The notes under the pieces were generated by a model. That model saw only the letters and a list, made by a program, of their open reading frames with translations. It was not told where the DNA came from and ran no database searches. Shown piece by piece: positions 2 through 40,587 of a stretch of 64,000 nt of DNA. A program made the position numbers and the translations under genes. How positions within the stretch are numbered: the first letter of the stretch is position 1; every line of letters begins with the position of its first letter. The DNA is from an uncultured delta proteobacterium (GTDB lineage Bacteria > Desulfobacterota > Desulfomonilia > Desulfomonilales > Desulfomonilaceae): contig CAWBKB010000004.1 of the NCBI GenBank assembly GCA_963789265.1, forward strand, positions 160,001 through 224,000. The letters are read 5' to 3'.

Positions 2-1135
2 AAATTTGAGGTGCCTGAGATCATCTATGGTCTTGGGGCATTGTGCCAAATAGGTGAGTGCGCCAAACGGCTGGGCGGCGAAAGAGTGATGTTGGTCACC
101 GATCCGGGAATCGTCGAAGCAGGCTGGGTGGATGAGACGATCAAGCATCTTGAACAAGAGGACTTGAAATACGTTCTGTACGATAATGTGGTCACAAATC
201 CTCGAGATTTTCAGGTGGTGGAAGGCGCTCAGGAGTATGTCCAGAAAAAGTGTGACGTGATCGTGGCAGTCGGCGGGGGCAGCCCTATCGACACGGCAAA
301 GGGCATAGCCATCCTAGTGTCAAACCACGGCAGCATTCAAGAATACGAAGGTTGCAATCGGATTGTTCAACCGCTTCCTCCCATGGTCTGTTCACCGACC
401 ACCGCGGGAACAGGTGCCGACGTGACACAATTTGCCATAATTACCGACACGGATCGAAAAATGAAAATGACAATCCTAAGCAGAGCTATCATGCCCGATA
501 TTTCGCTGATAGATCCGCGATTGCTCCAGACCAAGTCTCCGGAACTCATGGCCGCCACAGGTATGGATGCGCTGACTCATGCCCTTGAGGCCTATGTATC
601 CTCGCTGTCATGGTCTATGACCGATCCTCATGCAATTCACGCGGTGGAATTGATTGCCGAACATCTTGTAGCTGCTGTAAAATACAAACGAATCGAAGCG
701 CTCGAAGGAATGTCCATTGCCTGCCTCGAGGCGGGTATAGCATTTTCCAATGCTATCCTGGGCGCGGTGCATGCGTTGGCCCATCCGGTGGGAGGTTTTT
801 ACGATGTACACCACGGCGTTGCAAATGTGGTGCTTCTGCCGGCTGTGGTACCAAAGAACCTCGAATATTCCAATGAAAAGTACGCGTGAGTCGCGGCGGC
901 CATGGGAGCGCAAACCAATGGAATGGCCGTAACCGACGCTGCCATCAGCGTCCTTGAACGCATTGATAAATTGATTGCCGAACTCGAGCTACCTACCAAG
1001 CTTTCTTCGCTTGGCGTGAATCAGGACGACATCCCGCGGATGGCGGCTCTTGCCGAGCAGGACATCTGCATGTTAACCAATCCGTGCTACTACTCGATTG
1101 CGGAAATCGAGGAGCTATACCGGGAAGCCTGGTAA
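2..1135 (+). CDS. Iron-containing alcohol dehydrogenase family protein, ErcA-like; 5'-truncated by the window edge, in-frame TGA at 887-889
   Basis: Frame is open from base 2 (KFEVPEIIYG). Motifs GGGSPIDTAK, PTTAGTG, DALTHALE, GAVHALAH and HHG. ORFs 11..889 and 902..1135 share one frame, split by a single TGA. Confidence 0.85.
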
Positions 1136-1144: not shown

Positions 1145-2341
1145 ATGTCAAAAGCAAGTACACCTGCTGACTACGATTTTAAAGGGATCGGTTTTTCGAA
1201 AATAGGGTACTTCAAGGAAGTTCGCTCCAAGATAAGGGAACTTGAAGACCTCAATATAGAACTTGCGCGGCGTCACAACAAGCTCGAAGCAATCATTAAC
1301 GGCATGAGCAGTGGATTGGTAATCTTGGACCGAAACCTGAACATTATCTTTGCAAACAAGGTCCAGGTGTCCATGTTCCCCGGTGTCCCGCTGATCGATC
1401 AGGAGTGCTATAAGGCTCTGTACGGGAAGAAAAAGAGATGCAAGGATTGCCCGGCCCTAAAAACACTGGAAACTCACGAAACTTACAGAGGTGAAATCCT
1501 GATCAAGGAAGGCGGATTTGCAGGTCGGTACTATGAATGGACTACTTCACCCATAAAGAATCCATTCGGTGAGGTATCCGAAATTGTCCTGCTCATGCGT
1601 GACATAACCCGGCGCAAGGAGTACGAATTCAAGCTATTGCAAGCCGACCGCATGGCGGCAGTAGGCTTGCTTGCCGCAGGAATCGCGCACGAGATCAACA
1701 ACCCCTTGACATCCATCGCGGGATTTTCGGAAGGATTGCTTAAGAGGCTCAAGGAATTCAAGGGGCCGGTAGACCGCAAGCAATTGGCGATGTTTAAAGA
1801 GTACCTTGAAATCATTTTTAAAGATGCTTACAGATGCAAAGATATCATCCAAAACCTGCTTGAATACAGCAAAAAGTCGACTGATGATACGGAGATTCTG
1901 GACATTGACCAAATTGTCAGCGACACTGCATCTCTCATTCGGCAACATGCTAAAGACAACAAGATCAGAATAGTTGTCAAGAATAGCTTGGCTACCGGAT
2001 TCAATCGAATCGTCGGGAACGAATCACAGCTCAAACACTTATTTCTGAATCTCTTTAATAATGCTTTTAAAGCTATGGAAGGCGGCGGGCAACTCAGCAC
2101 GCTGGCCAAAAATTCCGGCAATCTCATAGAAATCACCATATCTTACCATGGGCGTGCTGTAGCGCGGGCAAAGGACCGGTCTCAAGATCGTTTGTGTGAA
2201 AACGTAGCCGAGAGGGACGAGCGTATGGACCTCTCGATCTGCTACAGTATCATGCGCCATCATGGCGGCGAATTGAGATTGGAGGACTCGGCTGGAGGAG
2301 CGCGCAAATTCGTTTTGCAATTTCCTTCCATAATGACTTAG
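1145..2341 (+). CDS. PAS-domain sensor histidine kinase with a degenerate ATP-binding domain
   Basis: H-box AHEINNPL and N-box LFNNAFKA are present; the G1/F/G2 boxes are not recognisable. Confidence 0.85.
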   Translation: MSKASTPADYDFKGIGFSKIGYFKEVRSKIRELEDLNIELARRHNKLEAIINGMSSGLVILDRNLNIIFANKVQVSMFPGVPLIDQECYKALYGKKKRCKDCPALKTLETHETYRGEILIKEGGFAGRYYEWTTSPIKNPFGEVSEIVLLMRDITRRKEYEFKLLQADRMAAVGLLAAGIAHEINNPLTSIAGFSEGLLKRLKEFKGPVDRKQLAMFKEYLEIIFKDAYRCKDIIQNLLEYSKKSTDDTEILDIDQIVSDTASLIRQHAKDNKIRIVVKNSLATGFNRIVGNESQLKHLFLNLFNNAFKAMEGGGQLSTLAKNSGNLIEITISYHGRAVARAKDRSQDRLCENVAERDERMDLSICYSIMRHHGGELRLEDSAGGARKFVLQFPSIMT

Positions 2342-2639: not shown

Positions 2640-3977
2640 ATGAGTCACGCCAAAATCCTCGCCATTGACGACGAAAAAAATATCAGACACTTGATCAAGA
2701 ACGAGCTCACACTTGAGGGCCTCGATGTCTCTACGGCCAAAAGCGGCGAGGAGGGCCTCAAACTTTTCAAGGATAAGAGCTTTGATGTCGTGCTCCTTGA
2801 CATAAGGCTCCCCAAGATGAATGGCCTCGAAGTGCTGAGGAATCTGAAACAAAAATCTCCCCGCACTGAAGTCATTATGATCACCGGTTACGGAGACATA
2901 CAAACTGCCGTACAATCCATGAAACTGGGCGCCCGAGACTACATCACCAAGCCTTTCAAGTTGAGCGAGCTATTGGCCATGGTTAATGAAATCGTGGCTG
3001 AAAACGGGAGATATAAGGACCTGCGGACGCAGCATCCGGCCAATCCGGCCGATGGTGCGCCCAGCTTTGTCGGATGCCCCAGCGAAGAAATGCAAGAGGT
3101 CTATGACCTGGCCGATAGGGTGGCCGATACGGACGTGACCGTGCTGATCCAGGGCGAGACTGGAGTGGGAAAGGACGTGCTTGCGGTCCGGATCCATCTC
3201 AACAGCAGTAGAAAGGCCAATTCTTTTGTTGTAGTTGATTGCGGATTGCTCACTCAAAATCTGGCCGAGAGTGAACTATACGGGCACACTAAGGGTGCTT
3301 TTTCCGGCGCGTCTGAAACGAAACAGGGCCTGGTGGAAAAAAGCCATGAAGGCACAATATTCTTCGACGAAATCGGAAATATCGAGCTGGACATGCAAAA
3401 GAAATTTCTCCGGTTTCTCGAGACGAAAAAGTTCCGCCGCCTGGGCGAGACCAAGGAAAGGCAGGTTGACAGCCGAATAATCCTGGCGACCAATCTGGAT
3501 CTAAATGATGCGGCACAAAAGGGGATTATGCGGCGAGACTTGTTTTACCGTATGGATGTAATCTGCATTCGGGTACCTCCTCTCAGGAATCGGGCCGAAG
3601 ACATTGCGCCGCTAGCCCGGCATTTCCTTGGACTGAACCGCGGCAAGCAGCAGCCCAGGGAAATTTCTCCCGAAGCCTTGATGGCACTCGCCGAGTACAC
3701 CTGGCCCGGCAATATCAGAGAGTTGAGATCCGTAATTACCAAGGCTACGATATTCTCCAAGTCCGACGTGATTACGCCTGAAGACCTGCCCGCGCACATC
3801 CTGACGGACAAAAAACCTCTGCTATCACCACCCAAGAGTCTGGAAGATCTCGAAAAGGATCACATTGTGAAGGTCCTCGAGGATACGGGCGGTAACCAGA
3901 GCAAAGCCGCGGACATTCTGGGTATCAACCGCAAGACTCTGTACAAGAAGATGCATAAGTACCAACTTTTTGTCTAA
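2640..3977 (+). CDS. NtrC-family sigma54-dependent response regulator (REC-AAA+-Fis HTH)
   Basis: REC (LLDIRLP), Walker A GETGVGKD, ESELYGH, GAFSGA, FFDEIG, WPGNIREL and C-terminal HTH LGINRKTLYKK. Confidence 0.95.
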   Translation: MSHAKILAIDDEKNIRHLIKNELTLEGLDVSTAKSGEEGLKLFKDKSFDVVLLDIRLPKMNGLEVLRNLKQKSPRTEVIMITGYGDIQTAVQSMKLGARDYITKPFKLSELLAMVNEIVAENGRYKDLRTQHPANPADGAPSFVGCPSEEMQEVYDLADRVADTDVTVLIQGETGVGKDVLAVRIHLNSSRKANSFVVVDCGLLTQNLAESELYGHTKGAFSGASETKQGLVEKSHEGTIFFDEIGNIELDMQKKFLRFLETKKFRRLGETKERQVDSRIILATNLDLNDAAQKGIMRRDLFYRMDVICIRVPPLRNRAEDIAPLARHFLGLNRGKQQPREISPEALMALAEYTWPGNIRELRSVITKATIFSKSDVITPEDLPAHILTDKKPLLSPPKSLEDLEKDHIVKVLEDTGGNQSKAADILGINRKTLYKKMHKYQLFV

Positions 3978-4552: not shown

Positions 4553-4568
4553 AGGCATGGACCTTGCA
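4553..4568 (+). promoter_or_regulatory. Sigma54 -24/-12 promoter of the DUF362-mft-lar operon
   Basis: AGGCATGGACCTTGCA: GG(4554-55)-N10-GC(4566-67), downstream of a sigma54 activator gene. Confidence 0.65.
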
Positions 4569-7594: not shown

Positions 7595-7644
7595 GTCGTT
7601 TGGTGAGGGCTCCGATATTTTTCGCTCAAAAGGAGGCGGCATCA

Positions 7645-8544
7645 ATGTCCACCGACCGCAGCATGGCGGAAATGCACAAAATGCACGGACCCATCAATCA
7701 GGCCATGGCCCACGTGAATTATAAGCTGGCCGTGATCAGCGGAAAAGGGGGAGTGGGAAAGACCAGCGTGGTAGTCAACCTCGCTGCCGCCTTAAAGAAA
7801 AAGGACATGGAGGTTGGGATTTTTGATGCGGACGTTCACGGCCCTAGCGTGCCCAAAATGGTGGGTATCAAAACCAAAATGAGGGACCTGCTTCACGGAA
7901 GCCACGGCATCGACCCTGTTTCCACAGATCACGGATTAAAGGTCATGTCCGTAGCGCTCATCTGGCCGACCGATATGACGCCCATTATGTGGCGCGGCCA
8001 GTACAAAGCCCGCGTGCTCAGGCAGTTCCTAAGCTCCATCAAATGGCATGAACTTGATTTCCTGCTCGTGGATCTTCCACCCGGTACGGGTGATGAGCCC
8101 ATCACGATTATGAAATCAATACCAAGTCTGGACGGTCTGATTGTCGTCACCACACCTCAGGAGATCTCCACCATCGTATGTAGCAAGGCCATCAATGCGG
8201 CCAAGGAACTCAACACCCCCATTATCGGCCTCATTGAGAACATGAACTCCTATCGTTGCCCCGGCTGCGGGCGGGAAGAATTCCTCTTCGGGAGAGAAAA
8301 AGGGGAGAAGCTGGCCAATACCTTCAAGATTCCGTTCCTCGGGGGCATACCTCTGGATGGGCAATATTCGGATGCCGCGGACCAAGGGATCCCTATCGTT
8401 TTTAAGCACCCGGATTCTCTAACTTCTCAGGCCATGTTGAAAATTGCAGATGAGATTGTCAGAAGATTGCCTCCCAGGCCAAAAGCGGTTGTAAAAGAGC
8501 ATGCCTGGGAAGAGGGCAGGGAACACAAACGAAAAACTCATTAG
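7645..8544 (+). CDS. Mrp/NBP35 (ApbC) Fe-S cluster carrier ATPase
   Basis: SGKGGVGKT, DADVHGPSVP, DLPPGTGDE and ENM..CPGC; RBS AGGAGG before ATG 7645. Confidence 0.9.
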   Translation: MSTDRSMAEMHKMHGPINQAMAHVNYKLAVISGKGGVGKTSVVVNLAAALKKKDMEVGIFDADVHGPSVPKMVGIKTKMRDLLHGSHGIDPVSTDHGLKVMSVALIWPTDMTPIMWRGQYKARVLRQFLSSIKWHELDFLLVDLPPGTGDEPITIMKSIPSLDGLIVVTTPQEISTIVCSKAINAAKELNTPIIGLIENMNSYRCPGCGREEFLFGREKGEKLANTFKIPFLGGIPLDGQYSDAADQGIPIVFKHPDSLTSQAMLKIADEIVRRLPPRPKAVVKEHAWEEGREHKRKTH

Positions 8545-8649: not shown

Positions 8650-9009
8650 ATGGCAGATCAACAAAAAATCGATGTCACCGGGAAAGGTCCCGCCTTCATG
8701 AGAGAAGCCCTGGAGTTGTTCAGACAGATTGACGGACAGTGTGCTGCTTTGTCCCCGGATGCTGCCGTGAAAATCAAGGCAACTCTTTCAACCAAGGCAC
8801 ATGAAATTGAGCCTCTGCTGAGCCGAGCGTACATGAAAACAGTCAAGGCGGGAGAGACTGCTCTTGGCTGTAAGCAACTTGCAACCGACTTGAAATCGTC
8901 CATAGACACCGGTGATGAGGCTAAGGCATTGGAAGCCTTGGATAACCTTGGGACGCAACTCGATGGGCTCGTCCACAAAGTCAAAACTTTTGTGGTGAGA
9001 ATGACGTGA
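8650..9009 (+). CDS. Hypothetical helical protein
   Basis: RBS AAGGAG, ATG start, operonic position. Confidence 0.7.
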   Translation: MADQQKIDVTGKGPAFMREALELFRQIDGQCAALSPDAAVKIKATLSTKAHEIEPLLSRAYMKTVKAGETALGCKQLATDLKSSIDTGDEAKALEALDNLGTQLDGLVHKVKTFVVRMT

Positions 9010-9025: not shown

Positions 9026-9328
9026 TTGGCGGGAAAGCTGAGCGACGATCTTTTGGCCGTCATGAGGATCATTCAGGATAAGGGCGGCACGCACTGTTCG
9101 GGATCCTGCCATCATCGGAAACCTGGTGAATTCCACTGTCACTTGATCGGGCAGGAACTGAAGATGTCGTCGTCAGGTGTAAAAGATCGAATTCTTGCTC
9201 TGCTTCGGATGGGCCTGCTGAAACGCGAGAGAGTGGGCGGGCAAGAAGCATACCCCACCACGATGTTCACCATTTCGGCAAAGGGGGAAATGGTGCTGAC
9301 TCAGATCAGCGATGGCGACAAGAAATAG
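9026..9328 (+). CDS. Small winged-helix-like protein with a Cys/His-rich insert
   Basis: RBS AGGAGG. HCSGSCHHRKPGEFHCH precedes the HTH-like segment IGQELKMSSSGVKDRILALLRMGLL. Confidence 0.6.
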   Translation: MAGKLSDDLLAVMRIIQDKGGTHCSGSCHHRKPGEFHCHLIGQELKMSSSGVKDRILALLRMGLLKRERVGGQEAYPTTMFTISAKGEMVLTQISDGDKK

Positions 9329-9336: not shown

Positions 9337-9654
9337 ATGCCGCACCCAATGCATGAAGCGGTAGTTGACTTGATTCAGAAGGCCGTAGCTCTAATGGATG
9401 GCTTCCTGCGATATCAAACCGATTTGAATGAATATTCGGAGAAACTCAGAGCACTGGACGTGGACACCGTAATGGTCGCGTACGCAAACGATTTCAAGAA
9501 TGACGCCACGCTGGTCTATTACCTGGATGCGCTCATGCTCCTCTCTTCGCTCCAGCATGAGTTGGATTTCCAGGTTGCCGAGTACGGCGCCAACGTAGCG
9601 TTGGAAGACATGCGGAACTTACAAGAGCTGTTGAAGAAATTTCCCGAAAAGTAA
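9337..9654 (+). CDS. Hypothetical acidic helical protein
   Basis: RBS GAGG, ATG start, tightly packed in the operon. Confidence 0.7.
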   Translation: MPHPMHEAVVDLIQKAVALMDGFLRYQTDLNEYSEKLRALDVDTVMVAYANDFKNDATLVYYLDALMLLSSLQHELDFQVAEYGANVALEDMRNLQELLKKFPEK

Positions 9655-9703: not shown

Positions 9704-10513
9704 ATGAAGCTTGAAGGCAAAGTAGCCGTTGTTACAGGTGGAGCCCGAGGCAACGGCTTCGCCACAGCCAAACTGTTGGCTGAAGAAGGAGCGGATATAG
9801 TAATTGCCGATATCTGTGAGGATATGGCCACGATCCCTTATGCCATGTCCACCCCGGAAACGATGGCTGATGCGGTCGATGGCATAAAGCAATTGGATCG
9901 AAAAGCCGTTGGGATCAAGTGCGACGTGCGGAAATCTTCAGATGTTGAAGCAATGGTCCAACAAACTTTGGACACGTTCGGCAGAATCGACATACTGGTT
10001 AACAACGCCGGCAACTCCTCCATGATGGCGGTCGCGGACATGAGCGAGCAGGAATGGGACGAAGTTCTGGACACTCATCTCAAGGGAACTTTCCTGTGCT
10101 CCAAGTATATTGTCCCCAGGATGATAGAACAGCACAGCGGCAAGATCATCAACATCTCGTCAGTAGGCGGTCACCGTGGATTCGGATTGGGCGCTCACTA
10201 CTGCGCAGCGAAGCATGGGATCATTGGGCTGACGAAGTCGCTGGCTATGGAAGTGGCGGATCACAATATTAACGTAAACGCGGTGTGCCCGGGCACGGTT
10301 TGGACACCGATGATGCAGGGAGTAGCCTCATTTTTCGGCATGGAGGCTGAAGAGGCCAAGGAGCAGTTCCTGGCAGGGCATCTGTTCAAGGACCGCGAGA
10401 TCATGCCCGAAGATATAGGCCGAGCGGTGCTGTGGCTTGCAACCGATGATTCCAAATGCATCACCGGTCAATCCGTGCTCGTGGATGCCGGCTGGACCTG
10501 CCGGGCGCCATAG
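9704..10513 (+). CDS. Mycofactocin-coupled SDR family oxidoreductase
   Basis: TGGARGNG, NNAG and YCAAK. Carries the ADIC..IPYAMSTPET insertion typical of mycofactocin-dependent SDRs; adjacent to mftA. Confidence 0.85.
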   Translation: MKLEGKVAVVTGGARGNGFATAKLLAEEGADIVIADICEDMATIPYAMSTPETMADAVDGIKQLDRKAVGIKCDVRKSSDVEAMVQQTLDTFGRIDILVNNAGNSSMMAVADMSEQEWDEVLDTHLKGTFLCSKYIVPRMIEQHSGKIINISSVGGHRGFGLGAHYCAAKHGIIGLTKSLAMEVADHNINVNAVCPGTVWTPMMQGVASFFGMEAEEAKEQFLAGHLFKDREIMPEDIGRAVLWLATDDSKCITGQSVLVDAGWTCRAP

Positions 10514-10602
10514 CAGATGTTATTGCATTCCTGGCCGGCCTTGGCGCGGTCAGTTGGAGGTCGGGCTAAACTGACGTACAAAAATGAGGAGGCACGGGTC
10601 TT

Positions 10603-10728
10603 ATGGACACAGAAGTCGACAGAGAAGACGTACAGATTAACGATGTAGAATGTCATGAAGGGCCATCCGTTTTGGAAGAAATAACTATCGAAGAGATGGC
10701 TGTGGACGGAATCTGCGGGATTTATTAG
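10603..10728 (+). CDS. mftA: Mycofactocin precursor peptide, variant type (41 aa; not in the ORF track)
   Basis: RBS GAGGAGG. Translates as MDTEVDREDVQINDVECHEGPSVLEEITIEEMAVDGICGIY*, matching the canonical IDGMCGVY C-terminus; directly upstream of mftB-mftC. Confidence 0.93.
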   Translation: MDTEVDREDVQINDVECHEGPSVLEEITIEEMAVDGICGIY

Positions 10729-10793
10729 GTCACGCCCAGGTGTCTGGTTCCTTACTCAAATCGAGCTGGGAACCAGACGGAAGCATACGCACC

Positions 10794-11075
10794 ATGTCTT
10801 CTGATGCAGTCTACCGCTTAGCGGATGGCGTCCAAGTCCGACGAGAGAAATTTGGCCTTTTGTTTTACGACTACCGGGGACCAAGACTATATTTTGTGCC
10901 ATCGGGAGATCTAATGGAAGATCGGTTCTTTGACGGCGAACGGACCGCCCGGGAGTTGGCCGAATCCGTATGTGCAAAACATGATTGGCCGCGACGATTG
11001 ACCGTGGGCCGAGTGAACCGGATCCTCGAATTGCTCAAGATGAAAGGGCTTATCCATGAGCAATCGCTACGTTGA
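10794..11075 (+). CDS. mftB: Mycofactocin biosynthesis chaperone (RRE/PqqD-like)
   Basis: VQVRREKFGLLFYDY..RLYFV resembles MftB; lies between mftA and the radical SAM gene. Confidence 0.85.
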   Translation: MSSDAVYRLADGVQVRREKFGLLFYDYRGPRLYFVPSGDLMEDRFFDGERTARELAESVCAKHDWPRRLTVGRVNRILELLKMKGLIHEQSLR

Positions 11076-12087
11076 TACAGGTCTGTCGGCCCCGGTAAAC
11101 GTAACCTGGGAAGTTACGTATGCCTGCAATTTGTCCTGCGCCCATTGCCTCTCCGATTCAGGGGGACAGAGAAAGGGCGAGCTGACCACAGAGGAATGCC
11201 GCAGGATCATTGACGCCCTGTCGGCGAGCAGGGTTTTTCAGTTAAGTATAGGAGGGGGGGAGCCTTTTGTGCGCGATGACTTTCTCGATCTGATGGATCA
11301 TGCCCATGAAAAAGGCATAGTCACCTGTATCAGCACAAACGGCACCATGATTCATGAGGAGATCGCACGCAGGCTCGATCACAAGCTGGTTTACATTCAG
11401 GTCAGCCTCGAAGGAGCTAAACCAGCGTCCAACGACAGCATTCGAGGCGAGGGGAGTTTTCGCCGTGCCTTACGTGGCTTGGAATGCTTGAAGAATAGAG
11501 ACATAGAAGTCAGCATAAACACTGTCTTGACCAGGGTCAGTTTTCCCGAACTGGATGCCCTTGCTGCTTTGGCCGCTTCTCTCGGAGCCAAATTCCGCGT
11601 CTCGAGATTCCGACCGTCCGGCAGAGGCAAGAAGAGTTGGGCAAACCTGAACGTTTCCAGAAAACAAATGGTCGCTTTTTCCGATTGGTTGAGCGGTCAC
11701 ATGAATGTGTCTACAGGAGATTCCTTCTTTTCCGTAGCTCACGAAGATCGTAGATCTCTTGGTTTGAACATGTGCGGAGCATGCAAGCTGACATGTTGTG
11801 TCTCTCCGCTCGGCCAAGTGTACCCCTGCGCATTTCTCCAGGAAGAGGAATTTCTGGCCGGAAACTTGCCCCGGGATGCCTTTGCACCTATATGGACCGA
11901 CGCCGCGGTCTTTAAATCATTCCGAGAACTTGAAATAAGATCCTGCGAGAGTTGCGATCGATTCGACCTATGTCATGGCGGATGCCCCGCCATCGCTTAT
12001 CATACCCAAAAGAAGCTGGGACTTCCCGACCCGGGATGTCTTGCCAATTGCGTTTCCGTCAAATCGTCAATATCAAGTGTGGCTTAA
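11056..12087 (+). CDS. mftC: Mycofactocin radical SAM/SPASM maturase
   Basis: TWEVTYACNLSCAHCLS, GGGEP, ISTNG and SPASM cysteines LNMCGAC..CC..YPC..CESC..CHGGC. Confidence 0.92.
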   Translation: MSNRYVDTGLSAPVNVTWEVTYACNLSCAHCLSDSGGQRKGELTTEECRRIIDALSASRVFQLSIGGGEPFVRDDFLDLMDHAHEKGIVTCISTNGTMIHEEIARRLDHKLVYIQVSLEGAKPASNDSIRGEGSFRRALRGLECLKNRDIEVSINTVLTRVSFPELDALAALAASLGAKFRVSRFRPSGRGKKSWANLNVSRKQMVAFSDWLSGHMNVSTGDSFFSVAHEDRRSLGLNMCGACKLTCCVSPLGQVYPCAFLQEEEFLAGNLPRDAFAPIWTDAAVFKSFRELEIRSCESCDRFDLCHGGCPAIAYHTQKKLGLPDPGCLANCVSVKSSISSVA

Positions 12088-12088
12088 C

Positions 12089-13582
12089 ATGAATCCGCTC
12101 GCAAAGGCAGGCTTTTGTCTCAGTCCTGAAACCAGCCTGATTTCCGGACACGGTGGCGGAATTGTCTTCAGGCCAGGGCCGCTGAGAGCCCTGAGAGTGA
12201 ATGCGCCTGCCTTTGATTTGTTGCGGAAATGTGGCAACGGCCGATCTGTAGACGACCGGTGTTTGGACAAATCGGTACGGTTGGACTCAATGCTTAGCTT
12301 CTTCGACCGATTGTACCAAGCCGGCCTTTTGGAATGGAAGCCTCCCGAGGAAGGCTTTGAGCCCTCCGTCAGCGTTGTCGTAGCCGTGTACAATCGGGCG
12401 GGCGAAATCGGTTCGTGCATAGAATCGTTGATGAACCTGATTTACCCGCGCTTGAAATATGAAGTCATCGTTGTGGACGATGCTTCCGATGATGACACGA
12501 GTTCCGTGGTGTCGCGGTACGGCGTCAAGCTCATCAGATTGGAGCGAAATCAAGGTCAGTCCGCGGCTCGCAATGTTGGAGTAACCGAAGCCCGAGGAGA
12601 AATAATCGCTTTCATAGATAGCGATTGTATAGCCGAACCTGAATGGCTACGCGAACTAGTGCCATATTTTCAGGATTCGAGGAACGCTCTGGTGGGTGGC
12701 TACGTTGCGCCCTATTACCGAAATTCCGTGCTTGACCGATATGAAGAAGTCAAATCGCCTCTAAACATGGGCAAGGACATGCTTATCGGCACGGGTGAAG
12801 AATCAGACTTCTATGTTCCGACTTGCAACATGCTGGTGCGGAGAGATGTTTTCCTGCGGGTACGCGGATTCAACGAGAGCCTGCGAGTCGGCGAGGACGT
12901 GGATTTTTGCTGGAAACTCAAAGAAAATGGCTGCCGGCTGATTTACGCCCCATACGGAACCGTGAGGCACAAGCACCGAGGTCGGTTCGGTGAGGCCTTC
13001 AAACGCCGTTTCGATTACGGGACCTCGGAACCAGTTCTCTATTCCCGCCACAAAGCCATATTCAAGCTTTATCCGTGGCAACCGGCATGTATGGCCGTTT
13101 TTTTTCTCTGTGGATTGGGATTGCTGTCAGCACAGCCTTTGACTGGTCCAGCGGCAGCGGCTTGCTTCCTTTGGGACGTATTCTGCAAAAGTAGACGCTA
13201 CAGAAAGCGCATTGGAATAGCTGTTAAGTTCGGGGCCGTCCTGAGAGCCAGCGCGGTCCGTCACTTTGACCTTGCGTATCACCTTACCCATCACCTGGTT
13301 CGGTATCATCTGGTCCTGATGGCGCTGATTGCGTTTGTGCTGCCGTCGACCATTCCAGTGGTTGCAGCTATTGTGCTGCTTCCTGTGATTACCGAGTTTG
13401 TCAAGAAGAAACCTTGCCTCACTTTCCCTGTGTTCCTGGCCTTGTTTCTGACAGAGCAGGTCTCATACCAGGCAGGTGTGTTTTGTGGTTGCCTCAGACA
13501 AAAGAGCTTCCGGCCTTACAGACTTGTATTGGCTCGCGGTACCGGACACCGCAGGCTGGCATTCTCCACAAAATTGAATTAG
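12089..13582 (+). CDS. mftF: Mycofactocin glycosyltransferase (GT2 with C-terminal membrane segment)
   Basis: ATG 1 nt after the mftC stop. VVDDAS, AARN, FIDSDC, YVPTCNMLVRR, LRVGEDVDFCW and RRFDYGTSE. Confidence 0.88.
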   Translation: MNPLAKAGFCLSPETSLISGHGGGIVFRPGPLRALRVNAPAFDLLRKCGNGRSVDDRCLDKSVRLDSMLSFFDRLYQAGLLEWKPPEEGFEPSVSVVVAVYNRAGEIGSCIESLMNLIYPRLKYEVIVVDDASDDDTSSVVSRYGVKLIRLERNQGQSAARNVGVTEARGEIIAFIDSDCIAEPEWLRELVPYFQDSRNALVGGYVAPYYRNSVLDRYEEVKSPLNMGKDMLIGTGEESDFYVPTCNMLVRRDVFLRVRGFNESLRVGEDVDFCWKLKENGCRLIYAPYGTVRHKHRGRFGEAFKRRFDYGTSEPVLYSRHKAIFKLYPWQPACMAVFFLCGLGLLSAQPLTGPAAAACFLWDVFCKSRRYRKRIGIAVKFGAVLRASAVRHFDLAYHLTHHLVRYHLVLMALIAFVLPSTIPVVAAIVLLPVITEFVKKKPCLTFPVFLALFLTEQVSYQAGVFCGCLRQKSFRPYRLVLARGTGHRRLAFSTKLN

Positions 13583-13632
13583 CTAGGAAAAGTGAAAAAT
13601 TTGCCCGTGATTTCGAGGTGGCCGTTTTGAGA

Positions 13633-14460
13633 ATGAAACCAAAAGTAATTAGTGAAAAATTTGGCCGTCTTCAGGACATCCTGAAGGGAATGAAAAGCGT
13701 TTTGGTGGGTTTTTCCGGAGGCGTCGATAGCACATTGCTCCTCAAAGCCGCTAAGGGCGTTTTGGGTAACAAAGTCCTGGCTGTTACTGCTCAGTCTCAC
13801 ACTACAGCCGGCCATGAAAAGATCGATGCTGCCAGACTTGCTAAACTGGTGGGCGCGCCGCACTTGGCACTCGAATCCCGCGAGTTCGACCTTCCCGAGT
13901 TTGTTCGAAATTCTCCTGATAGGTGTTATATTTGCAAGAAAAGCCGATTTGGAGACCTCGTCAACCTGGCGAATAAAAAGGGATTGAGATCCGTCATTGA
14001 CGGGGAAAACATGGATGACGATGGAGACTATCGGCCGGGTGCACAGGCCGCCCGGGAATTGGGGGTTCGCAGTCCGCTCCGCGAGTCTGAGTTATCTAAA
14101 GATGAAATTCGTTTTCTTTCAAAGAAGCTGGGTCTTCCGACATGGGATAAACCTTCCTACGCGTGCCTGGCCTCGAGAATTCCTTACGGCACTCCTCTAA
14201 CAGCGGACAGACTCAGGCAGATCGATGCTGCCGAAGAACGCATTCGCGAGCTGATCCCCGGATGCCAGGCAAGGGTGCGACATTATGGGAAAACGGCCCG
14301 CATCGAGGTTGAGCCAAGAGCTTTGTCAAAGCTGATGCACATTGGAGTTCGTAGCCATATACTCAGTTATTTTCACCTGTTAGGGTTTGATTTCGTCACC
14401 CTTGACCTGGAGGGCTACCGCACAGGAAGCTTGAACCGGGAAATTCACAGCGGGAAGTAG
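13633..14460 (+). CDS. larE: ATP-dependent sulfur transferase for nickel-pincer nucleotide (NPN) biosynthesis
   Basis: PP-loop FSGGVDS, RCYICK, DYRPG and PSYACLASRIPYG. Confidence 0.92.
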   Translation: MKPKVISEKFGRLQDILKGMKSVLVGFSGGVDSTLLLKAAKGVLGNKVLAVTAQSHTTAGHEKIDAARLAKLVGAPHLALESREFDLPEFVRNSPDRCYICKKSRFGDLVNLANKKGLRSVIDGENMDDDGDYRPGAQAARELGVRSPLRESELSKDEIRFLSKKLGLPTWDKPSYACLASRIPYGTPLTADRLRQIDAAEERIRELIPGCQARVRHYGKTARIEVEPRALSKLMHIGVRSHILSYFHLLGFDFVTLDLEGYRTGSLNREIHSGK

Positions 14461-14464: not shown

Positions 14465-15289
14465 ATGGATGGCAAGCATATAAGAAATCTGCTCGAGGCA
14501 GTGCAGAGTGGGAACATGGAAGTCGATTTCGCCATGGAGCGGCTGAGGAAACTACCATTCGACGATTTGGGATACGCAAAGATCGACTACCATCGGTGCG
14601 TTCGACAAGGGGTTCCGGAGGTTATATTCTGCCAGGGAAAGACCATCGAGCAAATTCAAGGCATTGTGAAACAGATTGCCCGACACCACAGCAACATTCT
14701 GGCCTCGAGGGCGAGTCGCGAGGCTTATGAGGCTATTCGGGAGGTCGTTCACGAATGCCGATATCACGAGATGGCCCGAATGGTAGTTGTCAATCCTCGC
14801 GAAATTGAAAAAATTGGCAATATCGCTGTCGTCAGCGCGGGAACATCGGATATGCCTGTGGCCGAAGAGGCCGCAATTACGGCAGAAACGCTGGGGAATA
14901 GTGTAAAACGTATGTACGACGTGGGCGTCGCGGGGATCCACAGAGTGCTGCACTGCTGCGAGGAACTCTTTAAAGCCAATGTTGTAATTGTTGTGGCGGG
15001 CATGGAAGGCGCCCTTGCGAGCGTTGTAGGGGGGCTGGTTTCGAGCCCGGTCATCGGAGTTCCCACCAGCGTGGGTTACGGAGCGAGCTTCGGGGGCATA
15101 GCCGCCCTCCTCAGCATGCTGAATAGCTGTGCTTCCGGCGTGTCTGTGGTAAATATCGACAACGGATTCGGCGCAGGCTACCAGGCCAGTCTTATTAACA
15201 TGAGAGCCGCCAAGAGAAGCGGCAGCGAATCAGTCCACATGCCTGTTCACGAAGAGGACGGATCGTGCCTTACCGAGGTGTGCTGCTGA
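14465..15289 (+). CDS. larB: NaAD carboxylase/hydrolase for NPN biosynthesis
   Basis: GVPEVIFCQGKT, AGTSDMPVAEEA, VAGMEGAL, PTSVGYG, MLNSCASG and NIDNGFGA. Confidence 0.95.
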   Translation: MDGKHIRNLLEAVQSGNMEVDFAMERLRKLPFDDLGYAKIDYHRCVRQGVPEVIFCQGKTIEQIQGIVKQIARHHSNILASRASREAYEAIREVVHECRYHEMARMVVVNPREIEKIGNIAVVSAGTSDMPVAEEAAITAETLGNSVKRMYDVGVAGIHRVLHCCEELFKANVVIVVAGMEGALASVVGGLVSSPVIGVPTSVGYGASFGGIAALLSMLNSCASGVSVVNIDNGFGAGYQASLINMRAAKRSGSESVHMPVHEEDGSCLTEVCC

Positions 15290-15329: not shown

Positions 15330-16529
15330 ATGAAGATTGCGTACTTTGACTGCTTTGCCGGCGCCAGCGGCGACATGATACTGGGATCTCTCATCGACGC
15401 GGGCCTTAGCCTGGAACAACTCAGGAACGAACTGGCCAAGCTGCATCTCACCCATTATGACCTGGAGACAAAGAAAGTTACCAAGAGGGGGCTGGGCGGA
15501 AGCCAAGTTATCGTCAATATTGACGAAGATCACCATCACCATCAGCATAGACACCTTCATGACATCAAAAAGATCATACAAAACAGTGAATTGAACGAAT
15601 ACATCAAAAGGCGGAGCATCGAAATATTCACCAAATTGGCCGAAGCCGAAGCCAGGGTTCACAGGACCACCGTGGAAGAGATCCACTTTCACGAAGTAGG
15701 TGCCATGGATGCCATCATAGACGTGGTCGGGTCTGTAGCCGGCCTTTCAGCCTTAGGCGTGGAAAAGGTCAGTTGCTCGTCCCTGCATGTGGGAACCGGG
15801 ACGATCGAGTGCGCTCACGGGACTTTGCCTGTTCCAGCGCCGGCCACAGCAGAACTGATCAAAGGCAAACCCGTCTATTCCACCGGCGTAGTGGGAGAAC
15901 TTTTGACTCCCACCGGAGCTGCGATTCTCACTACTCTCGCCTCCGATTTCGGACCAATGCCGCTCATGAACGTGGAAAAGATTGGATATGGGGCGGGCAC
16001 ATCTGATCCGGCTATACCAAATCTCCTTCGCTTGATCGTAGGACAGTCATCTGTGGAAGTGCCGAATTATGACCTGGAGCGTGTGGCAGTAGCTGAAACC
16101 AATATAGACGACATGAACCCGCAGATATATGACTATCTGATGCAGAAGATGCTGGATATGGGGGCTCTTGATGTGTTTCTCGTTCCAATGCACATGAAAA
16201 AGAACCGGCCTGGCACTCTGGTGACGGTTATTTGCCATCCCGAGCGGATAAACGAGTTTGCCGGTTTCTTGATGCGGGAAACTACCACCATAGGGCTCAG
16301 ATGGCGCATTGACAACCGTATCAAAGCTCGAAGATCAATTCGAGAGGTTCAGACAAAGTATGGACCGGTCAAGGTCAAGGTTGCGGAAGTGAGTGGTGGC
16401 ACGCTAAACGCGACTCCGGAATATGAGGACTGTAAGCGTCTTGCACTGGAAAAAGAAATTCCCTTGAAGGAATTGATGGAGCACGCGAGAATGGCCGCGA
16501 CTGAAGCTTTTCTCACCGGTGTGAAATGA
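15330..16529 (+). CDS. larC: Nickel insertase (cyclometallase) for NPN biosynthesis, full-length
   Basis: DCFAGASGDM, His-rich HHHHQHRHLH, HFHEVGAMDAIID, ETNIDDM, MKKNRPG and PEYED. Confidence 0.95.
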   Translation: MKIAYFDCFAGASGDMILGSLIDAGLSLEQLRNELAKLHLTHYDLETKKVTKRGLGGSQVIVNIDEDHHHHQHRHLHDIKKIIQNSELNEYIKRRSIEIFTKLAEAEARVHRTTVEEIHFHEVGAMDAIIDVVGSVAGLSALGVEKVSCSSLHVGTGTIECAHGTLPVPAPATAELIKGKPVYSTGVVGELLTPTGAAILTTLASDFGPMPLMNVEKIGYGAGTSDPAIPNLLRLIVGQSSVEVPNYDLERVAVAETNIDDMNPQIYDYLMQKMLDMGALDVFLVPMHMKKNRPGTLVTVICHPERINEFAGFLMRETTTIGLRWRIDNRIKARRSIREVQTKYGPVKVKVAEVSGGTLNATPEYEDCKRLALEKEIPLKELMEHARMAATEAFLTGVK

Positions 16530-16883: not shown

Positions 16884-18047
16884 ATGTTCAAGGCAGGTAC
16901 AGTAGTATCCAGGGACCCGATTTCTAAATCGGCGGGAGAGCGCCTGGGAGAGGCTCTCCTGGAAAGGCTGGATGGTCACGCTCCTTCCCTTTGCTGGCTG
17001 TTCAGCACCCCGTCCCTAGAATTGAAGGAGATGGTGAGCGGAGTGGTCCATGCCGTGGGCAGCAGCCATCTATTGGGGTGTACGACTGATGCCGAAATAT
17101 CAACCGAAGGCTTGAGCACCGGCTCGGTGGTCCTCTGCGGCGTTGTCACCGATCAAATCCGGTTTCACTTAGCTTTGGCAAAAGGTCTGCGTCAGGACTC
17201 CGGGCGAGCCGGCAAGAGACTTGCCAAACAGTTTCCTTCAACCGTGCAGTACGTGCAAATTTTCTCGGATGGCCTGACAGGAAATGGTTGCGCGCTCTTG
17301 CGAGGTTTGAGTTCCGCCTTGGGACGACATGTTCCCATAGCCGGTGGCACTGCGGGCGACGCCGGAGCGTTTCAGACTACTTCACAGTTTCTCGGGACGA
17401 AGATGTTTTCAGACGCGGTGGTAGCCGTGGGTTTTGAAGGCGATTTTGCAGTTGGAATGGGTGTACGGAGCGGTTGGTCCCCTATCGGGATTGCAAAGAA
17501 AGTCACCAAAGCTTCCGGCAACATTGTTTATGAATTAAACGGACAACCCGCGCTTGAAGTGTACGAGCGTTTCCTGGGAAAGCACGCGGACAAACTGCCC
17601 GCGGTGGGAGTTGAATATCCCCTTGGTCTGGTTCACAAATTGGAAGGCACAACTGAAGAAGAGTACCATATCTTGCGGGCCACTATGGCGGTCAACCGCC
17701 AAGACGGATCCATAGCCTTCGCTGGAGAAATTCCTGAGGGCTCCATGGTGCGCCTTACTTGCGGCGATCATGCTTCCATACTTGAAGCTGCGGAACAGGC
17801 AGCTTCTATGGCGATTAATGAAATGGGAAACCGCACTCCTTTCCTAGCGTTCTTTTATTCGTGCATGGCCCGCAGAATCGTGCTGGGCCGACGCACAGAA
17901 GAAGAAATAGATAGGATTCGTTTGGCGGTTGGAGCGAGATTGCCTATCGTGGGATTTTACACTTATGGAGAATTTTGCCGGGTCGCATGCAACGGGCCTA
18001 ACCTGTTCCACAATGAAACGGCCTCGGTGTCAGTCATCGGATTGTGA
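16884..18047 (+). CDS. FIST (NosP-like) signal transduction protein
   Basis: GCTTDAEI, SDGLTGNG, GGTAGD, GW.PIG, SCMARR, GFYTYGE and HNET. Confidence 0.9.
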   Translation: MFKAGTVVSRDPISKSAGERLGEALLERLDGHAPSLCWLFSTPSLELKEMVSGVVHAVGSSHLLGCTTDAEISTEGLSTGSVVLCGVVTDQIRFHLALAKGLRQDSGRAGKRLAKQFPSTVQYVQIFSDGLTGNGCALLRGLSSALGRHVPIAGGTAGDAGAFQTTSQFLGTKMFSDAVVAVGFEGDFAVGMGVRSGWSPIGIAKKVTKASGNIVYELNGQPALEVYERFLGKHADKLPAVGVEYPLGLVHKLEGTTEEEYHILRATMAVNRQDGSIAFAGEIPEGSMVRLTCGDHASILEAAEQAASMAINEMGNRTPFLAFFYSCMARRIVLGRRTEEEIDRIRLAVGARLPIVGFYTYGEFCRVACNGPNLFHNETASVSVIGL

Positions 18048-20797: not shown

Positions 20798-21481
20798 TTA
20801 CTCCTTCAGCCCCAGGACTCTCAAAAACCGTCCCATGCCTTCCTTTTTCAAAATAACCCCTAGTCTCATATTTCTGGTCGAATGTCTGAGGGATGCGCCG
20901 CGATAGTATTTGAGGATCGCCTCCGTCAAATCCAATACCTGGTCGTCGCTCATATTCCGGGCGATGACTTCACCGAGCATCGGATCTTTGCCGCCTGCGC
21001 CGCCCGCCATTATGATCCATCCCTTCGGAAGCCCGATGAGCCCGATGTCTTTGATCGCCGGCTCCACGCAGGAATTGTAGCACCCCGCAATGCCGATCTT
21101 CACTTTCGCGGTTATTTTCGGGAATGGGTGAAAGCGCTCGATCAGCTTTTGTGCGAACGACACCGTGTCGCGCTGGCCACGCGTGCAGAATGAATTTCCC
21201 GGGCAGACTTTCACGTACTGCTGGCAAAGGGCGGCTCCGACCTGTGGCTTTACGCCCAGAGCATCATAAAGTTTGTCAATGTCCACTTCCTTGACGCCCA
21301 AGAGTGCCAAGCGCTGGGCTCCCGTCAATTTGAGGGTTTTCACTCCGAAGGATTCGCAAGCCTCAACGATTCTTCTCGCGGTGCCCGGATCCATGATCCC
21401 ACCTATAAGCGGAGCCATGATAGCGTAGCTCTGGCAGTCTTTTTGAAGAATTGCGGCTTTGGATAAGATATCGTCAGCCAT
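20798..21481 (-). CDS. Small siroheme/[4Fe-4S] sulfite/nitrite reductase-like protein (paralog 2)
   Basis: AILQKD, KLTGAQR, CPGNSFC, GCYNSC and GGAGG. Confidence 0.85.
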   Translation of the reverse strand: MADDILSKAAILQKDCQSYAIMAPLIGGIMDPGTARRIVEACESFGVKTLKLTGAQRLALLGVKEVDIDKLYDALGVKPQVGAALCQQYVKVCPGNSFCTRGQRDTVSFAQKLIERFHPFPKITAKVKIGIAGCYNSCVEPAIKDIGLIGLPKGWIIMAGGAGGKDPMLGEVIARNMSDDQVLDLTEAILKYYRGASLRHSTRNMRLGVILKKEGMGRFLRVLGLKE

Positions 21482-21496
21482 TCTTGCCTCACAGTG

Positions 21497-22165
21497 CTAG
21501 ATCCGGATAGCTTTCTTGAATTCATCCAGGCCAATTTTGTCTATCACCCTGCCAAGGCGCACTTTATGGGCCCAGGCGCAACCTTCAAAAAAATGTATGA
21601 TTTTGGCCACGCTGGACTCCGCTTCCGCGTCGGTAAGACCCTCAGCGAGGACGTCTCCGAACCTGGGTTTTGCCCCACAGGTCCCCCCTGCGGTGAGAGT
21701 CCACCCCTCAGCCGTCCCCTTCAGGCCGATTTCTTTGACCGAAGGTGCAGCACAGCCATACTCACACCCTGCAACGCCGATCTTGAATTTAGCCGGCATA
21801 GGATAGCCGTGATACAGGCTATCCAATTTCAAACCCATGCCCATAGCATCTTGTTTCCCATGCCTACAGTATGTAGTTCCTGGGCAAAATTTGACCATAC
21901 GCACATAAAGGCCGATAGCGTAGCCGATACTCATCTCGAGGTCATGCCATACCGAGTCCAAATCCTCCTCTTTGAGCCCTATGATGGCGATGCGCTGGCC
22001 TGACGTCAGTTTGAGAGCCGAAGCGCCGTATTTCTCAGCAACCTCCACTATCTTCCTGAACGCGACCACATCCAGAAAGCCTCCGGGAACGTGAGGGGCA
22101 ATGGCATAGGTCTCTCTGTCCTGTTGCAGGATTGCTCCACTTTTCTCCAAAATGTCGGCTTTCAT
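21497..22165 (-). CDS. Small siroheme/[4Fe-4S] sulfite/nitrite reductase-like protein (paralog 1)
   Basis: GAILQQDRETYAIAPH, KLTSGQRI, CPGTTYC and GCEYGC. Confidence 0.88.
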   Translation of the reverse strand: MKADILEKSGAILQQDRETYAIAPHVPGGFLDVVAFRKIVEVAEKYGASALKLTSGQRIAIIGLKEEDLDSVWHDLEMSIGYAIGLYVRMVKFCPGTTYCRHGKQDAMGMGLKLDSLYHGYPMPAKFKIGVAGCEYGCAAPSVKEIGLKGTAEGWTLTAGGTCGAKPRFGDVLAEGLTDAEAESSVAKIIHFFEGCAWAHKVRLGRVIDKIGLDEFKKAIRI

Positions 22166-22205
22166 TCTGCACCTACCACGCACTTGACTACCGGCTGTTC
22201 GGACG

Positions 22206-22481
22206 CTATACCTCTGCGCTGGTGGGATCGATGATCCGTTTCACCTCAGATACACGATTCGCAGGGAATCCCCCCTCTTGAGCGTGCTTTTTAATCAGCT
22301 CCGCATTGGGTGAAATGTACACGCAGTAGATTTTGTCATCGGTGACATAACTTTCTACCCACTGGATCTGAGGCCCCAGTTTTTCCAGGACGTCGCGGGA
22401 TTTTTGCGAAATGGCCTGAATCTGGTCTCCGGAAAGACTTCCGGCACCCGGCAGTTCCCGCTCGATAACATACTTCGGCAT
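22206..22481 (-). CDS. DUF4242-family protein
   Basis: MPKYVIERELPG..QWVESYV..DKIYCVY..HA..GGFPANRVSEV. Confidence 0.8.
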   Translation of the reverse strand: MPKYVIERELPGAGSLSGDQIQAISQKSRDVLEKLGPQIQWVESYVTDDKIYCVYISPNAELIKKHAQEGGFPANRVSEVKRIIDPTSAEV

Positions 22482-22605
22482 AGTCAATACCTCCTGTTTT
22501 TTTTGGATTGTTGCAGTTTCAACCCGCCGCCGACTATCGAACACACTCTCAAGATTTCACATTCCCACGGGATTTTTGAGTCGCCCTCCTGCCTGTCCTG
22601 ACATG

Positions 22606-23094
22606 TCATTCCTCGCCTAGGGCGGTTTTGACCAATTCAGGCAAGCGGTCAGCGTTCTCTATCAGTTTCAGATACGTCTCTTTGGACAATTCTTCGTAGG
22701 TCAACGCACCAGTAGGGCAAACCTTGACGCATGTAGGGTCACCGTCACAAAGGTCGCATTTCAAGACACGCCCGTTGTCCCGGTCAACAAACGTAGCTCC
22801 GAAAGGGCATGCAGATACACAGCTCAAGCAACCGATGCAGCGATAGGGGTCCACGGCCATAGCTCCAGTAGAATAATTGCGATAGGTTGCGCGCTTGGGG
22901 CAAACCATCTCACAGGAGGGTTCCTGACATCTCATGCAATTGATCGGGACAAAAATACCTTCTCGTTCCCATTTCACCACATGTATCCGCCCCTTGGACG
23001 GACACGAGTACCCTTCATGCTTCAGCGAACAATACGCTTCGCAAGTTCTGCATCCCGAGCACTTACGGGCGTCAACAATCAACGTCTTAATCAT
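22606..23094 (-). CDS. Multi-[4Fe-4S] electron-transfer subunit (CooF/DmsB-like)
   Basis: CSGCRTCEAYC, CMRC..PSC..VCP, CIGCLSCVSACP and KCDLC..C..CP. Confidence 0.88.
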   Translation of the reverse strand: MIKTLIVDARKCSGCRTCEAYCSLKHEGYSCPSKGRIHVVKWEREGIFVPINCMRCQEPSCEMVCPKRATYRNYSTGAMAVDPYRCIGCLSCVSACPFGATFVDRDNGRVLKCDLCDGDPTCVKVCPTGALTYEELSKETYLKLIENADRLPELVKTALGEE

Positions 23095-23170
23095 GAGATT
23101 CTTCCTTCGCCGGTTCCGATGGCCACGGTCGCCTGCCATCAAAGTGGATTCGCAATAACCGTCACATATA

Positions 23171-23337
23171 GCGATTCTCAAAAGTAATCACGAAAAGAGA
23201 AAATGGCTTGGTGGCGACGCCCCGCACGGAACGCGGAGTTGCCCGTCATCCCAATAGACAGGCTGGAAGCCTGTCCCACCAATCCGAATTAGATGCCGAG
23301 ACTCATTGCGTATCACGACAATACTTTTGAGAATCGC
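23171..23337. mobile_element. MITE-like element (family C), copy 1
   Basis: Perfect 16-bp TIR GCGATTCTCAAAAGTA / TACTTTTGAGAATCGC; internal GACAGGCTGGAAGCCTGTC; second copy at 53772-53925. Confidence 0.75.
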
Positions 23338-23346
23338 CATACGTCC

Positions 23347-24648: not shown

Positions 24649-24652
24649 TACT

Positions 24653-40562: not shown

Positions 40563-40587
40563 ATGGGCTGAATATATGTGAGGGAGT

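Follow-up and report, generated by a model that had tools for sequence, protein, structure and literature searches.

An operon-borne, variant-type mycofactocin precursor ending in Ile-Tyr in an uncultured member of the Desulfomonilaceae

In the mycofactocin pathway described for Val-Tyr precursors (available text of PMC10288494, PMC11778925 and PMC7491314), MftB binds the precursor peptide MftA, and MftC decarboxylates the terminal tyrosine and cyclises it with the penultimate valine to a dimethyl-pyrrolidinone. MftE then releases 3-amino-5-[(p-hydroxyphenyl)methyl]-4,4-dimethyl-2-pyrrolidinone (AHDP), MftD deaminates AHDP to the keto-amide premycofactocin (PMFT), and MftF adds β-1,4-glucose to the phenol. 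Here we analyse a 64,000-nucleotide stretch (the window; positions 160,001 to 224,000 of contig CAWBKB010000004.1, GenBank assembly GCA_963789265.1) from the genome of an uncultured delta proteobacterium of the Desulfomonilaceae, which contains an mftA gene whose product ends in Ile-Tyr. Our reading, to which we give a probability of about 0.6, is that this is a variant-type mftA, that MftC would make an ethyl-methyl lactam from its isoleucine, and that the product would be finished by non-canonical enzymes.

The closest described system is the canonical mycofactocin cluster of Mycobacterium and Mycolicibacterium smegmatis (MftA-F, MftG, MftR and MftM; available text of PMC3023750 and PMC7491314). 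The locus shares with it a precursor ending in the pattern DGxCGxY, an MftB chaperone of the RiPP recognition element (RRE) type (RiPP, ribosomally synthesised and post-translationally modified peptide), a radical S-adenosylmethionine (rSAM)/SPASM maturase MftC, a family 2 glycosyltransferase (GT2) MftF and a client of the nicotinoprotein type, a short-chain dehydrogenase/reductase (SDR). It differs in the Ile-Tyr end, in a score of 20.8 bits with the classic MftA model TIGR03969 (cut-off 25), in that no MftD or MftE was found, and in its setting, an anaerobe-type genome where the cluster lies among LarA-fold Fe-S proteins and nickel-pincer genes. Pyrroloquinoline quinone (PQQ; PqqA/PqqD/PqqE) is a more distant parallel: it too is a peptide-derived redox cofactor, its synthesis starting with an rSAM/SPASM enzyme and that enzyme's RRE partner, and PqqE appears among the MftC matches at 116 bits, whereas its crosslink is Glu-Tyr and its tailoring and client enzymes are others.

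The gene occupies 10603..10728 on the plus strand, opens with ATG and has 41 codons (translation MDTEVDREDVQINDVECHEGPSVLEEITIEEMAVDGICGIY*). Its product scores 55.6 bits (cut-off 30; E = 4.5e-15) with NF040489, the NCBIfam model for a 'variant-type mycofactocin precursor', residues 19-41 covering positions 1-23 of the 23-position profile in full. A six-frame search with the same model returned two sites in the 6.06 Mb host genome (G000; 9 contigs, 95.6% complete, 6.1% contamination), mftA at 55.5 bits and one weaker site, and none in the 14 control genomes (0/14). The match is real and far beyond chance, and a chance open reading frame (ORF) is thereby ruled out. The gene encodes a short acidic peptide directly 5' of mftB, whose start lies 12-66 nt downstream, and mftC follows; together with MftB, MftC and MftF proteins that each exceed their NCBIfam equivalog cut-offs, this leaves us in very little doubt that it is a functional mftA-type precursor gene. 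A preliminary description of this DNA had proposed just such a precursor behind a strong ribosome-binding site, and in this it is borne out.

The same description had presented the peptide as unannotated, and here it went too far. The variant-type family is already catalogued and the gene as such is no discovery, because the curated family NF040489 holds it and public annotation names its close homologues: NCBI has a 'variant-type mycofactocin precursor [Desulfomonilaceae bacterium]', and several JGI entries read 'mycofactocin precursor'. The small ORF had indeed been left out of the program-made ORF list, which reflects its size only, and the identical peptide is an entry in a public protein collection. 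NF040489, and likewise the NF040490 family of the adjacent SDR, thus contain the two proteins as full-score members (55.6 and 522.1 bits). NF040489 is an annotation model in which most members end in Gly-Val-Tyr (GVY) and those ending in Gly-Ile-Tyr (GIY) are a minority; the top scores nevertheless belong to GIY peptides (up to 57.7 bits). A literature search that left most subscription journals outside its reach found nothing on an Ile-Tyr precursor, on 'variant-type mycofactocin', on a mycofactocin system in Desulfobacterota or on a link between mycofactocin and the nickel-pincer cofactor.

We then asked how widely the Ile-Tyr end is kept, in 61 genomes of the same family and class (G000 included) and in 401 genomes sampled evenly across the phylum. 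NF040489 matched in 10/61 and 17/401 genomes, respectively. Peptides read from the loci end in GIY in 10 genomes of 7 genera and 2 families (family f1: G000, G001, G009, G014, G035, G025, G030 and G031; family f33: G255 and G312), and the remaining true matches all end in GVY; a 20-bit match within a 576-aa frame of G384 lacks the motif and was dropped. The isoleucine codon is ATT in three of these genomes, ATC in five and ATA in two. Such synonymous change over a kept residue supports conservation of the penultimate isoleucine under selection, as judged from the codons. It also disposes of assembly or sequencing error, since 10 genomes of 7 genera keep Ile with all three codons.

Larger collections agree with this picture. 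When 5.8 billion proteins were searched through a word index, 19 peptides came back, and 19/19 end in GIY. A profile built from 20 variant peptides (A1), run against 1.84 billion cluster representatives (clusters at 50% identity), found 1061 proteins at E ≤ 0.001; among the best 150 of these, 132 end in GVY, 16 in GIY, and two extend beyond GVY, probably owing to loss of the stop. No residue other than Val or Ile stands before the Tyr in those best 150 of 1061 matches. A position confined to these two residues fits C-beta chemistry, because, of the aliphatic residues, it is Val and Ile that have a tertiary beta-carbon. Public Logan contigs covering 10300-11300 comprise one identical across the Ile codon, one relative with ATC and one relative ending GGC ATC TAC TAA; they show that the Ile codon is present, not how frequent it is. 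GTT (Val) at 10720-22, which the preliminary description had named as evidence against it, occurs in none of the contigs covering the codon, which are of low depth and are not raw reads. The conservation that it had asked about is seen in genomes, homologues and clusters alike.

A further pattern concerns the residue seven places before the end, which is mostly Val where the penultimate residue is Ile, and Ile where it is Val: in the best 150 clusters VDGICGIY occurs 15 times and IDGICGIY once, and IDGICGVY 102 times and VDGICGVY 28 times. The opposed pair may reflect a compensating swap or plain phylogeny.

The enzymes that complete canonical mycofactocin were sought in 11 genomes, 88-100% complete, comprising 7/10 GIY carriers and four GVY-only carriers. 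For MftE (TIGR03964, cut-off 172) there were no matches in the host genome or in 5/5 related GIY genomes, and in five further carriers (one GIY, four GVY) the model found only creatininase-family matches of 91-123 bits, lying on other contigs or megabases from the mft loci. For MftD (TIGR03966, cut-off 470.85) the best score was 22 bits in the host genome and 95.9 bits in the 10 other carriers. These searches included no positive-control genome; weaker family members were detected, so homologues could be found. With neither MftD nor MftE over cut-off, peptide release and oxidative deamination would therefore be done differently or not at all. According to the available text of PMC7491314, an M. 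smegmatis mftE mutant retains most mycofactocins, at reduced levels, and loss of mftD abolishes them (no PMFT or mycofactocin (MFT)). It is thus the keto-amide-forming step that constitutes the gap here.

Two DUF362 proteins stand at the head of the operon (Table 1), and the first of them resembles LarA in fold. An AlphaFold2 model of this 452-aa protein, computed with an alignment of 61 diverse homologues (A3), reached a predicted local distance difference test score of 92.9, against 33 with 12 close orthologues. Foldseek returned 17 structures at E ≤ 0.001, and those listed are lactate or malate racemases, other LarA-like nickel-pincer enzymes and one untitled structural-genomics entry. VIA-align gave Z scores of 14.1-17.7 for the top 12 entries, the same LarA-type set, the next being 5.2, with a root-mean-square deviation of ~3.1 Å over ~220 residues; malate racemase (6d6z) scored 17.7 and LarA (5huq) 16.4. 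On the basis of the model, we are confident that the protein has the LarA fold. Residues ~205-260 form a ferredoxin-like two-cluster insert, and a search of PDB sequences with the DUF362 profile matched ferredoxin-like proteins only, all to this insert. H161, H165 and H191 are invariant, and K184 is present in ≥90% of sequences. A homologue with 66% identity occurs in Pelotomaculum thermopropionicum, which belongs to the original set of mycofactocin species.

The likeness to LarA and other nickel-pincer enzymes thus lies in the fold, in an operon shared with larE, larB and larC, and in a common Pfam clan: DUF362 and DUF2088 (LarA) both belong to CL0471, and DUF362 was used there as an outgroup (available text of PMC11770544). 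The difference is that the protein matches PF04015 (DUF362) only and not DUF2088 (Lar_N), and carries a ferredoxin-like insert absent from LarA. A search of the host genome with PF09861 (Lar_N) gave a single match, on another contig, and none in the window. LarA abstracts a hydride beside a carboxyl-type carbon. Because of this chemistry, together with the fold and the neighbourhood, we infer that the DUF362 proteins may act on the alpha-amino or alpha-hydroxy lactam of the cofactor.

The following course of events can be proposed. MftB would bind the acidic leader of MftA, and MftC would oxidatively decarboxylate the C-terminal Tyr and join the Tyr-derived carbon to the penultimate beta-carbon, which in Ile would offer a tertiary C-H as it does in Val. 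The product end would then be 3-amino-4-ethyl-4-methyl-5-(p-hydroxybenzyl)-2-pyrrolidinone instead of the 4,4-dimethyl compound, with a new quaternary stereocentre; by analogy with the Val-Tyr reaction, such a 4-ethyl-4-methyl lactam is a plausible product of MftC. MftF would glycosylate the phenol, and release from the peptide, with any conversion to a redox-active keto-amide, would fall to non-canonical enzymes. The best candidates for finishing would be the pair of LarA-fold DUF362 Fe-S proteins, constant companions of the cluster, with the nickel-pincer cofactor genes. The product might serve as a private electron carrier of the single adjacent SDR, and would be chemically distinguishable from a Val-Tyr-derived cofactor made by the same cell at a second locus.

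Several points weigh against this reading. Absence of mftD and mftE is not proven, because of the completeness and contamination figures of the host genome given above, and a cell without MftD may lack a route to the redox-active keto-amide; in M. smegmatis, loss of mftD abolishes mycofactocins. The role proposed for the DUF362 proteins derives from their fold and neighbourhood, and the lar genes may serve more than this operon, because a second larB lies elsewhere in the genome. Hydrogen abstraction at C-beta by MftC enters the argument as general background. Val-Tyr is, moreover, called 'essential' for the MftC reaction in the available text of PMC10288494.

The Ile-Tyr system is not the only one in the cell. 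On contig 1 of the host genome a second locus (L019:1155-13204, minus strand) encodes an aldehyde dehydrogenase, an Fe-type alcohol dehydrogenase, an MftA that ends GVY (EEVAIDGICGVY), MftB and MftC (332 bits). It also contains two genes matching TIGR03997, 'mycofactocin system FadH/OYE oxidoreductase 2' (OYE, old yellow enzyme; 858 and 712 bits, cut-off 793), an electron-transfer flavoprotein (ETF) alpha subunit related to mft_etfA and an HdrD-like Fe-S protein, and no MftF was found in it. The genome has exactly two MftC genes, one beside each MftA. More widely, 7/10 GIY genomes also carry Val-Tyr precursors. Orphan GVY-type precursor genes occur at L032 (G001), L062 and L063 (G255 and G312) and L065 (G410); neither MftB nor MftC was found within ~10 kb on each side of them, where there are no N runs.

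A quick maximum-likelihood tree of MftC (26 sequences, high-scoring segment pairs <300 residues left out, midpoint root) bears on whether the isoleucine matters. One clade, with a Shimodaira-Hasegawa-like approximate likelihood ratio test value of 99, unites nine GIY enzymes with three of the GVY group 'EELSVDGICGVY' of family f1, at ~71% identity. This GVY group is nested within the GIY clade, the f33 GIY pair branches first, and at least two I/V changes are needed; the peptides of the nested GVY group have V at both places, the penultimate one and that seven before the end. A column search for a specificity determinant separating GIY from GVY MftCs found nothing convincing, the only alignment column private to the GIY enzymes being Q318. 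From these comparisons MftC seems to accept either residue with little adaptation, since I/V switches fall within one clade and a single private column accompanies them. The switching supports the same reaction on Ile and, equally, leaves room for near-neutral change.

The strongest competing explanation is that Ile is a functionally neutral replacement of Val, handled by a promiscuous MftC, so that the cofactor function is the same and the methylene discriminates nothing. The two I/V changes within one MftC clade and the near-lack of private residues speak for it, as does the occurrence of the SDR3/DUF362/Lar operon with GVY precursors in other families (L056-L058). Set against this, Ile is invariant at the orthologous locus of 10 genomes in 2 families, though a single transition separates it from Val, and again in 16 separate 50%-identity clusters. 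The distribution points the same way: all seven genomes with at least two variant-type precursor genes have exactly one GIY (7/7), and 14 of the 17 single-precursor genomes have GVY, the other three having GIY. We claim no statistics on these counts because the genomes are kin, with perhaps two to four independent events. We doubt neutrality without thinking it far-fetched.

We consider it unlikely that the canonical pathway operates unchanged except for one CH2, giving AHDP, PMFT and glycosylated MFT-n analogues each heavier by 14.016 Da, with generic enzymes in place of MftE and MftD. The equivalog-level matches of MftB, MftC and MftF are in its favour; the mftE mutant of M. smegmatis indicates that other peptidases can release the core, and the available text of Haft (2011; PMC3023750) places MftD and MftE in most, not all, mycofactocin species. 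The difficulty lies with MftD, without which M. smegmatis makes no PMFT or MFT and whose family reaches only 95.9 bits against 470.85 in the 11 genomes, and the organism's own family lacks even a creatininase-family homologue. The +14 series that had been predicted from the sequence presumes both MftE and MftD, and it is weakened to the extent that neither exceeds its cut-off in the host genome and 10 other carriers.

The modified end might instead never become a free keto-amide: the product could be a glycosylated amino-lactam or remain bound to peptide or protein, as another cofactor or RiPP that shares only the MftC step. The lack of MftD and MftE over cut-off in all carriers tested and the three conserved small proteins of the operon would suit such a product. 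The adjacent SDR, on the other hand, falls in a curated 'mycofactocin-coupled' subfamily, and a diffusible or exchangeable redox carrier is indicated by the OYE/ETF/FixC genes in related GVY loci and by the 'mycofactocin system' OYE and ETF genes in the cell's own GVY locus; we regard this alternative as improbable. MftC might also treat Ile differently, for example by stopping after decarboxylation or by forming the link at another carbon, which is very unlikely given that only Val and Ile occupy the position among the best 150 clusters and that the GIY MftCs score at equivalog level (367.5 bits) and nest with the GVY enzymes. An assembly or sequencing error, or a decaying paralogue, has practically no chance of being correct in view of the cross-genome conservation, the three synonymous codons and the agreement of public contigs.

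The features of the operon and its upstream flank are collected in Table 1.

Table 1. Positions in the window of the mycofactocin-type operon and of the elements upstream of it.
Feature	Position	Strand	Evidence and remarks
Fe-type alcohol dehydrogenase fragment	11-889		upstream of operon
PAS histidine kinase	1145-2341		upstream of operon
Sigma-54 activator / response regulator	2640-3977		upstream of operon
Candidate sigma-54 promoter, AGGCATGGACCTTGCA	4553..4568	+	GG-N10-GC; 308 nt 5' of first operon gene, downstream of 2640-3977
DUF362 protein, 452 aa	4876..6234	+	Pfam PF04015, 141 bits; predicted LarA fold; 2x[4Fe-4S] ferredoxin-like insert
Second DUF362 paralogue, 340 aa	6572..7594	+	PF04015, 73.6 bits, and Fer4 families; 4Fe-4S dicluster insert
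Mrp/ApbC-type Fe-S cluster carrier ATPase	7600..8544	+	PF10609, 290 bits; NF041136, 294.9 bits, under that cut-off
Three small conserved ORFs	8650-9009, 9026-9328, 9337-9654	+	kept in 10/10 GIY loci
Mycofactocin-coupled SDR oxidoreductase, subfamily 3	9704..10513	+	NF040490, 522.1 bits, cut-off 385
Shine-Dalgarno GAGGAGG of mftA	10586..10592	+	10 nt 5' of ATG, read from sequence
mftA, variant type, 41 aa	10603..10728	+	C-terminal end EEMAVDGICGIY; Ile codon ATT at 10720-10722
mftB, RRE-type chaperone	10740..11075	+	TIGR03967, 52.2 bits, cut-off 33
Stem-loop, mftA-mftB spacer	10741..10779	+	12-bp main stem, no T run
mftC, radical SAM/SPASM maturase	11056..12087	+	TIGR03962, 367.5 bits, cut-off 265
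mftF, GT2 glycosyltransferase	11975..13582	+	TIGR03965, 351.8 bits, cut-off 280, match from residue 52
larE	13414..14460	+	TIGR00268, 304.2 bits; match begins at residue 83, start uncertain
larB	14465..15289	+	NF033503, 300.1 bits
larC (LarC1 and LarC2 fused)	15330..16529	+	TIGR00299, 227.5 bits; NF052512, 152.9 bits

The gene order DUF362-DUF362-Mrp-three small ORFs-SDR3-MftA-B-C-F-(LarE)-LarB-LarC is kept in 9/9 GIY loci with both flanks, and the tenth (G030) shows the upstream half of it and then the contig end. Where a downstream flank is available, larB and larC are present in 9/9 GIY loci and an adjacent larE in 4/9. GVY counterparts in other families (L056-L058) have two DUF362 genes, Mrp, one small ORF, SDR3 and MftA-B-C, followed by an insert and then MftF-LarE-LarB. 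In L058:11390-18185 (G081) the insert between MftC and MftF encodes an OYE/FadH-type flavoenzyme, ETF alpha and beta and a protein like FixC or ETF-quinone oxidoreductase, an electron-transfer module that is missing from the GIY operon.

The two DUF362 proteins are ~24% identical to each other. No Pfam or NCBIfam family was found for the three small ORFs; the middle one has the look of a small winged-helix protein carrying a Cys/His patch, and the first gave no usable match in the ESM Atlas. The SDR is the sole NF040490 copy over cut-off in the host genome and is the presumed user of the cofactor. The mftB ORF opens with GTG at 10740, the TIGR03967 match begins at residue 22 and orthologue alignments begin at residues 17-25; the true start is likely the ATG at 10794 (93 aa). 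A complex prediction of MftB with MftA scored 0.02 against a mark of 0.32, which we count neither for nor against an interaction. The true start of mftF is probably near 12090.

The stem-loop in the mftA-mftB spacer has a predicted stability of -25.6 kcal/mol (z = -3.1), and none of 200 shuffled sequences was as stable (0/200). Several other GIY loci (L020, L021, L022, L024 and L026) also have strong hairpins at this position, unrelated in sequence. This recurrence suggests transcript processing or attenuation that sets the ratio of precursor to maturase.

As to regulation, the candidate promoter was read by eye against the sigma-54 consensus, from which it has two mismatches; its GG-N10-GC element is a possible sigma-54 promoter. 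A pattern search allowing ≤1 mismatch found nothing upstream of the operon and only chance-level matches elsewhere. Because of this element before the first gene and the sigma-54 response regulator just upstream, there is a faint hint that the operon may be under sigma-54 control. No MftR-type TetR regulator was found among the flanking genes scanned. One FIST/NosP-like sensor gene (16884-18047) sits between larC, which it follows immediately, and a hybrid histidine kinase; a second is at 34878-36050, and a NosP homologue lies near the GIY operon in five further loci (L020, L024, L026, L052 and L053).

Elsewhere in the window, an AAA ATPase gene followed by two Pup-ligase family genes (38753-43872; PF03136, 438 and 378 bits) resembles a pupylation module, here in a genome that is not actinobacterial. 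Ankyrin repeats account for nearly all of a 761-aa protein (55145-57433, minus strand; Ank_2, 637 bits), which is unusual for a free-living bacterium. Two small sulfite/nitrite reductase-like genes of the NIR_SIR type are found at 20798-30282 (minus strand) with an Hdr/Mvh-like set consisting of an NADH-ubiquinone 20-kDa-type subunit, a 1073-aa flavin/Fe-S protein and a CCG-domain protein.

To our knowledge, all that is known of mycofactocin chemistry comes from aerobic actinobacteria, in which Val-Tyr is regarded as essential. A fixed natural Ile-Tyr precursor is a ready test of the substrate scope of MftC, and from it one would predict a new cofactor core that has a quaternary stereocentre. 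If MftD and MftE are indeed lacking, these anaerobes must finish the cofactor by another route, for which the nickel-pincer genes and LarA-fold Fe-S proteins are concrete candidates; a finishing role would give the large, function-less DUF362 family its first testable role. A bolder proposal, which we rate as a long shot, is that anaerobic Desulfobacterota run an Ile-derived (4-ethyl-4-methyl) and a Val-derived (4,4-dimethyl) cofactor side by side, each with its own MftB and MftC and the pools and their client enzymes kept apart by the extra methylene, and that the Ile type is matured or recycled without MftD, MftE and MftG by nickel-pincer-using, LarA-fold DUF362 Fe-S enzymes that would abstract a hydride from the alpha-amino or alpha-hydroxy lactam, the electrons then going to Fe-S clusters. 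If maturation by DUF362 proteins and the nickel-pincer cofactor were true, two rare cofactors would be functionally coupled, and the LarA fold would gain its first non-racemase redox role.

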